In this document: piece after piece, positions 21,410 to 22,883 of the stretch
Layout: each line of letters starts with the position of its first letter
Numbering within the stretch: the stretch's first letter is position 1
DNA from: a bacterium
GTDB lineage: Bacteria; Patescibacteriota; Microgenomatia; UBA12405; BS750m-G30
Length of the DNA: 39,356 bases
Assembly: GCA_021157735.1 (NCBI GenBank)
Contig: JAGGVZ010000019.1
Location: 1 to 39,356 of the forward strand
Reading direction: 5' to 3'
Made by a program: the position numbers and the translations under genes
Notes under the pieces: model-generated
Told to the model about the DNA's origin: nothing
Databases searched by the model: none
What the model saw: only the letters and a program-made list of their open reading frames with translations

Positions 21410-22883
21410 CCGACAAACGCCGGCTTTCGGGTGTTGCCAACTTTGCTGACTTGACGGGCAGTGTGTGCAAGAGGCGAGAACGTATTCACCGGGGCCTGCT
21501 GATCCCCGATTACTACCAATTCCAGGTTCATGCAGGCGAGTTGCAGCCTGCAATCCCAACTGAGACCGCTTTTGATGGGATTAGCTCCGCCTCGCGGCTT
21601 GGCAACCCATTGTAGCGGCCATTGTAGGATGTGTGTAGCCCTGGGCATAAGCGTCATGCTGACTTGACGTCGTCCCCTCCTTCCTGTCCGACGTAATGTC
21701 GGACCTGTCCCCTGTGACACGAGTAACACAGGGCAGGGGTTGCGCTCGTTACCGCACTGAAGCGAACGACTCACGTCACGAGCTGACGACAGCCATGCAA
21801 CAGCTGTCCCGCCACTGAGTTTTCTCCTTTCGGAAAAAACATAAGCGGGATGTCAAGCCCAGGTAAGGTTCATCGCTTCGTCTCGAATTGAACCACATGC
21901 TCCACTGGTTGTGCGCCTCCCCGCCAATTCGTTTGAGTTTCAGCCTTGCGGCCGTACTCCCCAGGCGGTCCGCTTAACGCGTTAGCTTCGCCAGTCCGAC
22001 GTAATGTCGGACAAGCTAGCGGACATCGTTTAGGGCCAGGACTACCCGGGTCTCTAATCCGGTTCGCTCCCCTGGCTTTCGTCCCTCAGCGTCAACATAG
22101 TCCTAGCCACCTGCCTTTGCCTTCGGCGTTCCTTGCCATATCCACGGATTTCACCCCTACATGGCAAGTTCCGGTGGCCTCGGCCTAGTTCTAGCTTCCC
22201 AGTCTCCTGCCCTTTTTCTCGGTTAAGCCGAGATCTTTAAAGCAGGACTTAGGAAGCCGCCTACGGACCCTTTACGCCCAGTGAATCCGGATAACACTCG
22301 CGCCCTACGTATTACCGCGGCTGCTGGCACGTAGTTAGCAGGCGCTTTTTCTCCGACGTGAAGTCGGAGTGAGCGGTTTACAACCCGAAGGCCTTCATCC
22401 CGCACGCGGCGTCGCTGCGTCAGGCTTTCGCCCATTGCGCAAGATTCCTAGCTGCTGCCTCCCGTAGGAGTAGGGCCCGTGTCTCAGTGCCCTTGTGGGG
22501 GACCACCCTCTCAGGCCCCCTACCCGTCTTTGCCTTGGTAGGCCGTTACCCTACCAACAAGCTGATGGGCCGCACGCCCCTCCCAAAGCGGGCAGTTACG
22601 CCCTTTACCCCAAAGCTTCGCTTTGGGGAAATTCTAAATTCTAATACCTAAATTCTAAACAACGACTAACAACCAAAACTCACACAATCCAAACGTTTTA
22701 TTTTGGTCATTTAGAACTTCGAGATTGTTTAGGATTTAGGATTTGGAAAATTAGAATTTTCCACAAGGCGAAGCCTTGGGGATTATCCAGGATTACCCCC
22801 GATTTCTCGGGGCTATCCTCGACTTTGGGGTAGGTTCGTACGTGTTACTCACCCGTTCGCCGCTGTCCGACGTCACGTCGGAC
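21410..22883 (-). repeat. Same hairpin family (YCCGAC-loop-GUCGGR) at five 16S helix tips
   Basis: Copies: 21410-21423 (CCGGC-GUUU-GUCGG, h44 tip), 21686-21704 (h40 region), 21994-22012 (h26 region), 22351-22369 (replaces h17), 22865-22883 (h6 tip). The copies at 21686 and 21994 are identical 19-mers (gtccgacgtaatgtcggac). Confidence 0.85.
22608..22781 (-). other. Intervening-sequence-like insertion in the 16S 5' domain: AT-rich ~132-nt inverted-repeat element (22629-22760) flanked by GC mini-hairpins (22608-22628, 22761-22781)
   Basis: Arms cctaaattctaaacaa / ttgtttaggatttagg are complementary, with tandem octamers aaattcta and taggattt. The ends align with the 23S insert: shared acctaaatYctaaacaa, cgactaa, and ttgtttaggattt.ggattt.gaaaattaga. 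Confidence 0.78.

Follow-up and report, generated by a model that had tools for sequence, protein, structure and literature searches.

Elements without open reading frames in the genes for 16S and 23S rRNA of a Patescibacteriota bacterium belong to a palindrome family dispersed between genes in many phyla

We analyzed a contig of 39,356 bp (JAGGVZ010000019.1, positions 1–39,356 of the forward strand, assembly GCA_021157735.1) from a bacterium of the lineage BS750m-G30 (Patescibacteriota, Microgenomatia, UBA12405); this whole stretch is referred to below as the window. The window's genes for 16S and 23S rRNA each contain an insert of the same layout: an AT-rich core, here named element E, lies between two short GC-rich hairpins with 3-nt loops (Table 1). 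On the plus strand, the 16S insert consists of ccccaaagcttcgctttgggg (22608–22628), the core (22629–22760, 27% G+C), and ccacaaggcgaagccttgggg (22761–22781). A previous reading of the window made from the letters alone (the sequence-only reading) had reported this arrangement of inverted-copy GC hairpins around an AT-rich core, and it was borne out at the same positions and with the same sequences when the letters were re-read. The same reading had placed the insert in the h9/h10 area of the 16S rRNA; the Rfam alignment agrees and puts it in the h9 loop, with 153 extra nucleotides aligned to the apical loop of the helix that comes first after h8 (model positions ~188–190). In the 23S rRNA, 187 extra nucleotides were aligned to the loop of a tiny hairpin of the 5' domain (model positions 225–232). 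Thus, in both genes the insert is extra sequence in place of an rRNA helix loop, as is characteristic of intervening sequences (IVSs). Neither insert contains an open reading frame (ORF) or a gene for S23p, the “IVS protein” of PF05635, confirming their supposed non-coding nature, and tblastn revealed no S23p encoded anywhere in the window.

Table 1. rRNA genes of the window and the parts of their inserts.
Feature	Position	Strand	Description and evidence
16S rRNA gene	21332–22951	minus	1620 nt vs 1533-position model; Rfam RF00177, 1398.6 bits, full length
16S insert, 5' GC triloop hairpin	22761–22781	minus	RNA sense CCCCAAGGC-UUC-GCCUUGUGG; abuts E; sequence, local fold −11.3 kcal/mol, pairing counts
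Element E in 16S h9	22629–22760	minus	132-nt AT-rich palindrome, AAATYCT-type heptads, no ORF; E-family nhmmer profile E = 1.2e-21
16S insert, 3' GC triloop hairpin	22608–22628	minus	RNA sense CCCCAAAGC-GAA-GCUUUGGGG; reverse complement of 5' hairpin including loop; local fold, pairing counts
23S rRNA gene	9495–12734	minus	3240 nt vs 2925-position model; Rfam RF02541, 2385 bits
23S insert, 5' GC triloop hairpin	12492–12510	minus	RNA sense CCUCGUCC-UUC-GGACAAGG; sequence, local fold, pairing counts; non-native (site empty in relative L276)
Element E in 23S	12348–12491	minus	144 nt, 26% GC, no ORF; nhmmer E = 8.5e-20; Rfam alignment
23S insert, 3' GC triloop hairpin	12329–12347	minus	RNA sense UCUCGCCC-GGA-GGGCGAGG; sequence, local fold, pairing counts

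The sequence-only reading had also proposed that the two inserts are homologous, with arms that align and a center that has diverged. Local alignment of the two cores gave a score of 47 vs 10.2 ± 1.6 for 1000 dinucleotide shuffles (z = 23.5), which is far above the similarity expected by chance for low-complexity sequence and establishes the homology. Global identity of the cores was 65–70%; in one arm, 29 of 31 positions agreed, and the center had indeed diverged. Folded together with its flanks, each insert has a single continuous long hairpin as its minimum free energy (MFE) structure (−69.1 kcal/mol, z = −7.5 vs shuffles for 16S; −74.5 kcal/mol, z = −9.3 for 23S), so that the complementary termini of both inserts produce the extended stem-loop known from IVSs. 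The architecture of a GC, an AT, and a GC hairpin that had been suggested before is a real alternative fold common to both inserts, 9–13 kcal/mol above the MFE structure, which is one long hairpin.

The presence of the inserts among relatives is sporadic, which is also a feature of IVSs. A close strain with 99.5% identical 16S rRNA (L241, an independent assembly) carries the same 16S insert with a 7-nt deletion inside E, whereas two syntenic relatives (L243 and L242, 16S rRNA ~90% identical) lack it and have only a small h9 hairpin, e.g., CCCUCGC-UUUA-GCGAGGG. The 16S rRNA of L242 is, additionally, short by ~130 nt downstream of h10 in comparison with the window and L243 (~5831–5865), whether by a true deletion or through faulty assembly. 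The 23S insert is kept in two close strains (L274 and L275, 23S rRNA 99.1% and 99.6% identical, respectively) with a few changes inside E, among them a 2-nt deletion shared by both. In a more distant syntenic relative (L276) the 23S site is empty and reads GAAAACAACA|UGUGAUUCC; because the GC hairpins are absent from this empty site, they are part of the insertion and not of the native 23S rRNA. An assembly chimera, for which one could adduce only that metagenome assemblies are generally unreliable in rRNA regions, or a self-splicing intron is an extremely improbable explanation of the inserts. The same inserts occupy the same sites in independent assemblies from other samples (L241, L274, L275) with small strain-level differences; no group I/II intron or other intron family reached the gathering threshold for the rRNA inserts, and a permissive Rfam scan returned only generic hairpin-like matches far below threshold.

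A pattern derived from the four arms of the two inserts, AAATYCTAAACAA-N(54–84)-TTGTTTAGRATTT, with 24 fixed and 2 two-fold degenerate bases, matched at least 120 stretches in species-representative genomes and at least 120 in a metagenome collection, 240 loci or more in total. The pattern demands many fixed bases; therefore, only well-conserved copies of E were sampled. With an nhmmer profile of E, at least 302 copies were detected in ~1.6 Mb of fetched DNA, as many as four of them in 8 kb and ~97% between protein genes; in the window, the profile yields no copy beyond the two in the rRNA genes. Consistently, 230 of 246 pattern matches did not overlap a long ORF, and of the 180 copies with an ORF on both sides, 147 were located between co-directional genes, usually filling the spacer. 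When 462 arms were superposed, the outer end of the element was sharp and lay 21 nt past the anchor, and the arm had the form AAATYCT AAATYCT AANNNCT AAATYCT AAACAA, after which come some four further heptads in phase with AAA; the length of the element is ~125–150 nt. Mean identity was 76% between copies within one genome and 68% between copies of different genomes. The two copies of the window are ~70% identical and are not mutual nearest relatives.

Among the genome matches listed, E was found under ~19 phylum-level labels, with Patescibacteria accounting for 27 loci. The other labels were Planctomycetota, Desulfobacterota (“Deltaproteobacteria”), Nitrospirota, Omnitrophota, Bacteroidota, Ignavibacteria, Chloroflexota, Gammaproteobacteria, WOR-3, WOR-1, Elusimicrobia, Firestonebacteria, Schekmanbacteria, Latescibacterota, Acidobacteriota, Clostridia, and Kiritimatiellota, the last including the cultured Pontiella sulfatireligans F21. 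One copy lies on a contig of ANME-1 (anaerobic methanotrophic archaea; L033, 1818–1952) between genes of a peptidyl-prolyl isomerase and coenzyme F430 synthase (cfbE), with a nickel transporter encoded nearby; this surrounding marks the contig as genuinely archaeal, and the family therefore crosses the boundary between bacteria and archaea. Viral contigs gave 2 matches in 2.9 million, and none were found in the plasmid and phage GenBank sets. There is no Rfam family for E (only microRNA-precursor-like hairpin matches far below threshold were obtained), and we failed to find a description of the family in the literature. E is a very large dispersed family, not described in the literature searched, whose copies are mostly intergenic and occur in numerous bacterial phyla and in one archaeon or more. 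Locally, its density is very high in some genomes of the candidate phyla radiation (CPR): a Moranbacteria contig (L030, 1520–5377) contains four copies within 4 kb, about one per intergenic spacer.

It is practically certain that the inserts of the window are members of this family. The sequence-only reading had suggested an element that either targets rRNA or is tolerated in it. Because the inserts are ordinary members of a dispersed family, most copies of which are intergenic, targeting of or specificity for rRNA is unsupported. A separate subfamily of rRNA copies was also considered and was rejected by nearest-neighbor analysis. Selection at the RNA level on one strand of E was not apparent (G-U vs A-C mismatches in the outer arms, 503 vs 503, not overdispersed), nor did the better-folding strand track the direction of the neighboring gene (60 vs 74); the palindrome was therefore treated as a property of the DNA.

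The only ORF found inside E arms encodes S23p. Five PF05635 genes occur in E loci; in one of them (L141), the left arm of E runs straight into the ATG of the S23p gene and a full E follows its stop codon. Six further independent PF05635 loci (L244, L254, L262, L277, L278, L279), retrieved via homologues of the L141 protein, belong to Deltaproteobacteria, Roizmanbacteria, Chloroflexi, and others, and each is situated between co-directional host genes, e.g., gatC/gatA or nadD/nadE. At every one of the seven loci, matches to the E profile extend from upstream of the gene through the first 35–60 nt of the ORF and resume just past the stop codon, where the flank is either the right arm or a whole E (nhmmer E from 1e-5 to 1e-16); the E copies of the window match this same profile at 1e-20 to 1e-21. 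The start codon of S23p is the ATGAC of an inner-arm heptad, for which the 16S copy of the window reads ATGACCAAAATAAAA. For the cassette protein, matches were obtained to PF05635, to TIGR02436 (“four helix bundle protein”), and to a solved structure, 2rld. Very probably, then, E arms and S23p cassettes are linked. Since the arms bracket S23p genes in 7/7 sampled loci, E is regarded as the empty, MITE-like form (that is, resembling a miniature inverted-repeat transposable element) of the S23p cassette, and the window inserts as ORF-less members of the element class of classical IVSs.

Several of the bracketed cassettes lie inside operons (L244, 1160–1668; L278, 761–1224; L279, 765–1294; L277, 756–1224), with ABC ATPase/MacB permease, nadD/nadE, and gatC/gatA as contexts. 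The family of the cassette protein comprises ~8000 candidates at E ≤ 1e-10; its closest 120 homologues are 58–70% identical, and the few with organism names come from different phyla.

Outside the window, E was found in two other 23S rRNA genes. One, of a CPR bacterium (L154), contains three copies at 902–1046, 2150–2288 (helix 45, the classical IVS site), and 2609–2745, and one copy is present at the 3' end of the 23S rRNA gene of L222. The L154 gene (522–4807) carries several other large insertions besides its three E copies, with gaps of ~700–800 nt relative to the 23S rRNA of the window, and represents an extreme case of colonization of an rRNA gene.

GC-rich hairpins with 3-nt loops abut E on both sides in 7/7 copies with rRNA context (6 sites, 3 organisms) vs 1/240 others (Fisher p = 8e-13), and the single non-rRNA copy passing this test (L120) proved to be a false positive on inspection; no non-coding RNA gene was found around it or around other E copies with complementary flanks. 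The feature peculiar to rRNA is thus the flanking pair of GC triloop hairpins and not the AT-rich core. The 3' and 5' hairpins of a pair are reverse complements of one another, also in their loops (UUC/GAA, UUC/GGA, GCA/UAC, GCA/UGU, GUA/UGU, and UCU/AGA), and the hairpins of the three L154 copies, L222, and the 23S insert of the window (CUUGUGC..GCACAAGG and CUCGYGC..GCRCGAG) resemble one another at different sites.

Pairing was counted in six hairpin–E–hairpin units (composites, hp-E-hp'). Their local stems comprise 84 Watson–Crick, 4 G-U, and 2 mismatched pairs; in the alternative helix formed across E by the two hairpins, the respective numbers are 70, 11, and 9. Among the differences between paired hairpins are seven compensatory double changes, which leave each local hairpin whole and put A-C mismatches into the cross-helix; in the 3-nt loops, 17 of the 18 positions are still complementary to their counterparts, which matters only to the cross-helix or else reflects an origin by inverted duplication. 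Judging by the covariation in local stems together with the complementary loops, both folds look preserved.

The hairpin pair could also be a functionless by-product, arising when a palindrome lands by or in a hairpin and template-switching during replication copies the flank, inverted, to the other side. The pairs are indeed inverted copies including their loops, and flank complementarity exceeds the 99th percentile of the null in 17 of 235 copies, with ~2 expected. One such copy (L163, 2636–2823), located directly after lysS, has perfectly complementary 17-nt flanks (GCCACAGAGACACAGAG / CTCTGTGTCTCTGTGGC): either E was inserted into a hairpin loop or the flank was recently duplicated in inverted orientation. 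At 16S h9, moreover, each hairpin matches the native h9 of relatives in size. We nevertheless consider a by-product unlikely: the empty 23S allele has no hairpin to copy, the hairpins of L154, L222, and the 23S rRNA of the window resemble each other across sites and organisms, the seven compensatory changes point to ongoing selection for the local hairpins, and the hairpin-flanked architecture is exclusive to the rRNA context. As to how the pairs originated, movement of the whole composite is the candidate favored by the likeness of hairpins from site to site and by the emptiness of the 23S site in L276, and inverted duplication by template switching is a candidate kept alive by the size match with native h9 and the excess of flank complementarity.

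Hairpins at both ends, the lack of a visible target-site duplication, and the short non-coding body would also suit a derivative of an IS200/IS605-type element similar to palindrome-associated transposable elements, the subterminal hairpins of which are recognized by a single-strand HUH transposase. This assignment is very improbable for the composites, given that >97% of the family copies lack terminal GC hairpins, that the hairpin sequences vary between copies and form inverted rather than direct pairs, and that neither a TnpA-like nor another recurrent gene was found near E.

Another hairpin, CCGACG-NNNN-CGUCGG, caps 13 rRNA helix tips of the window and occurs nowhere else in it (0.15 expected by chance). 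Nine of these hairpins (~15 nt each) are in the 23S rRNA gene (10313, 10583, 10718, 11091, 11282, 11475, 11967, 12268, and 12568) and four in the 16S rRNA gene (21688, 21996, 22353, and 22867); the one at 11282–11296 corresponds to helix 45, and that at 22867–22881 looks like 16S h6 in the alignment. Differences between close strains often fall in these hairpins, and the 16S rRNA of L243 and L242 contains 0 and 1 of them, respectively. Earlier hairpin-flanked elements may have left them as scars, or they may constitute a small mobile hairpin.

The best overall explanation, which we hold to be probable, is that ORF-less copies of E in both rRNAs belong to the class of S23p-type IVSs and are processed as IVSs. 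Excision by RNase III with capping of the ends by the hairpins is a step toward which we lean only slightly, by analogy with known IVSs. The insert would be transcribed within the pre-rRNA, and the two GC segments and two E arms would pair into one duplex of ~80 bp. RNase III would then cut the AU-rich duplex, E would be degraded without religation, and each new rRNA end would refold into its own GC hairpin, serving as a cap. The predicted products are 16S pieces of ~191 and 1297 nt and 23S pieces of ~243 and 2853 nt. Excision with capping would explain both the preservation of the two folds and the finding of only hairpin-flanked copies in rRNA. The IVS label given by the sequence-only reading, therefore, suits the anatomy at the helix tips, and excision would fragment the 16S rRNA as that reading had supposed; the fragmentation itself is drawn from analogy.

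Alternatively, the inserts might stay in mature 16S and 23S rRNA as uncleaved expansion segments, each projecting from the ribosome surface as a long spur rich in AU. Their location at surface-exposed helix tips is compatible with such a fate, and the base of the long helix can mimic the native h9 pairing. We regard retention as rather improbable. Long unbroken AU-rich duplexes are generic substrates of RNase III, and the inserts would offer one of ~60 bp. Close strains differ by indels inside E (7 nt in L241, 2 nt in L274 and L275), which argues against a structural role for the core, and the preserved local hairpins would have no obvious use if the long helix remained intact. Finally, in classical IVSs of like anatomy, the arms of which are related to S23p elements, excision does take place (PMC4990558).

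Several observations weigh against the explanation by ORF-less IVSs of the S23p type. In the MFE model, the three-hairpin fold lies 9–21 kcal/mol above the continuous helix, and a role for the local hairpins is deduced from covariation in only six composites from 3 organisms, three of the composites being in one gene. The E cores of the rRNA copies form no clade. All seven S23p loci represent one subfamily (63–70% identical to the L141 protein), and four more divergent S23p genes with heptad-style inverted repeats gave no significant match to the E profile. Clustering of 1504 flanking ORFs from 240 loci revealed no mobility gene beside E, only generic ABC ATPases being recurrent. Neither a target-site duplication nor conserved flanking bases were seen at E, where A/T-rich ends could hide a duplication of 1–2 nt.

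In the window, the genes for 16S and 23S rRNA are unlinked: 8.6 kb separate them, and this interval holds seven protein-coding ORFs (7TM_transglut, ATP-grasp/RimK, type IV secretion system (T4SS) pilin, and others). The tRNA-Ala(UGC) gene is located just upstream of the 23S rRNA gene, tRNA-Ile(UAU) is divergent from the gene for 16S rRNA, and a 5S rRNA gene is absent from the window. Besides the T4SS pilin, the neighborhood encodes a stand-alone 5'-3' exonuclease and a transketolase that is split; together with the best homologues, these genes assign the organism to the Patescibacteria, close to Microgenomates/Shapirobacteria. A 573-aa ORF (12991–14712, plus strand) without a Pfam match is mosaic between otherwise near-identical strains: in comparison with L274, blocks of 51–67% nucleotide identity alternate with blocks of 92–97%, the adjacent S1 gene and 23S rRNA being 94–100% identical. 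Its product looks hypervariable and is possibly surface-exposed. Horizontal transfer of the L274 23S rRNA (99% identical, with a neighboring protein at 69%) was considered and rejected, as a sliding-window comparison pointed to a close strain with a mosaic protein.

Classical S23p IVSs, such as those of Leptospira and of helix 45 in Coxiella burnetii, are similar to the inserts of the window in replacing an rRNA helix loop, in having a long stem of terminal repeats, and in their sporadic distribution. The Coxiella IVS has a terminal inverted-repeat stem and tandem heptamers upstream of the S23p ATG; RNase III cuts within the stem, and the excised IVS RNA rapidly decays (PMC4990558). Heptameric repeats by the S23p start codon are a further common trait, and the arms of the window inserts match those around PF05635 genes in the seven loci described above; the likeness to the Coxiella and Leptospira IVSs is one of description and not of direct sequence comparison. 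Unlike the classical S23p IVSs, the window inserts have no ORF, one copy is in 16S h9, and the 23S copy is outside helices 9, 25, and 45; they are also flanked by paired GC triloop hairpins, and the E family lies mostly outside rRNA.

The ORF-less IVSs of Salmonella, Yersinia, Campylobacter, and Helicobacter are likewise ~100–250 nt in length, AT-rich, hairpin-forming, and located at helix tips. They are excised by RNase III without religation, leaving fragmented rRNA (PMC4990558), and IVSs in 16S rRNA are reported for Helicobacter canis and Campylobacter helveticus (reference list of PMC5041132). Compared by description, these IVSs differ from E in being lineage-restricted and known only from rRNA genes; neither hairpin pairs nor a family dispersed across phyla are described for them. 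Within the same host group as the window, short (<200 bp) ORF-less non-intron inserts atop stem-loops are common in CPR rRNA, uncharacterized and presumed to be IVSs of the RNase III type, and PF05635 ORFs occur inside 16S and 23S insertions (PMC11270868, Tsurumaki et al. 2024). That paper defines no sequence family, no link outside rRNA, and no flanking hairpins (0 occurrences of “palindrom”, “hairpin”, or “inverted repeat”).

Among intergenic repeats, MITEs and repetitive extragenic palindromes (REP, REPIN) are the closest parallels, being short, non-coding, hairpin-forming, multi-copy, intergenic, and often within operons. As in MITEs, the many dispersed copies of E have terminal inverted repeats, but no transposase element with E repeats was found as a parent, and neither a RAYT (the HUH transposase of REP elements) nor a TnpA-like gene was detected across the 240 loci, the only associated gene being that of S23p. 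E further differs from MITE and REP elements in that the copies of one genome are hardly closer in sequence than those from separate phyla, and in that it spans phyla and both domains. Solo arms bracketing a longer element were also sought, and only partial E copies were obtained. Avd of diversity-generating retroelements belongs to the same four-helix-bundle superfamily as S23p. Unlike Avd systems, E has no reverse transcriptase or template/variable repeats nearby, and the window encodes no such four-helix-bundle protein.

Taken further, these data allow a tentative proposal, possible at best in our opinion, that E and the E-bracketed S23p cassettes form one unrecognized cross-domain family of mobile hairpins without a conventional transposase, for which an Avd-like four-helix-bundle protein would serve as the mobility or maintenance factor. 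Classical IVSs would then be copies that landed in rRNA and survived through a bistable pair of GC hairpins, which would complete the RNase III duplex and then seal the ends, and the 13 CCGACG hairpins could be scars. Short uncharacterized rRNA insertions of CPR bacteria were reportedly noted already by Brown et al. in 2015. The origin of IVSs has been open since 1990, the hypotheses being remnants of transposition or mobile elements with mobility supplied by the ORF (PMC4990558).

What is new here is an ORF-less IVS of the S23p type in helices of both 16S and 23S rRNA, an undescribed hairpin pair, and an undescribed dispersed family. The IVS found here in the 16S and 23S rRNA of one CPR bacterium belongs to a family abundant outside rRNA in many phyla, and the “IVS protein” gene has the arms of this family as its scaffold. 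Part of the uncharacterized short insertions that make CPR rRNA unusual and disturb 16S surveys is thereby identified concretely. The question of IVS origin becomes testable through counts per genome, filled vs empty sites, and the cultured carrier Pontiella sulfatireligans. The RNA design, a duplex that would refold so that both ends are capped, could account for the tolerance of single-copy rRNA genes to insertions of this kind.

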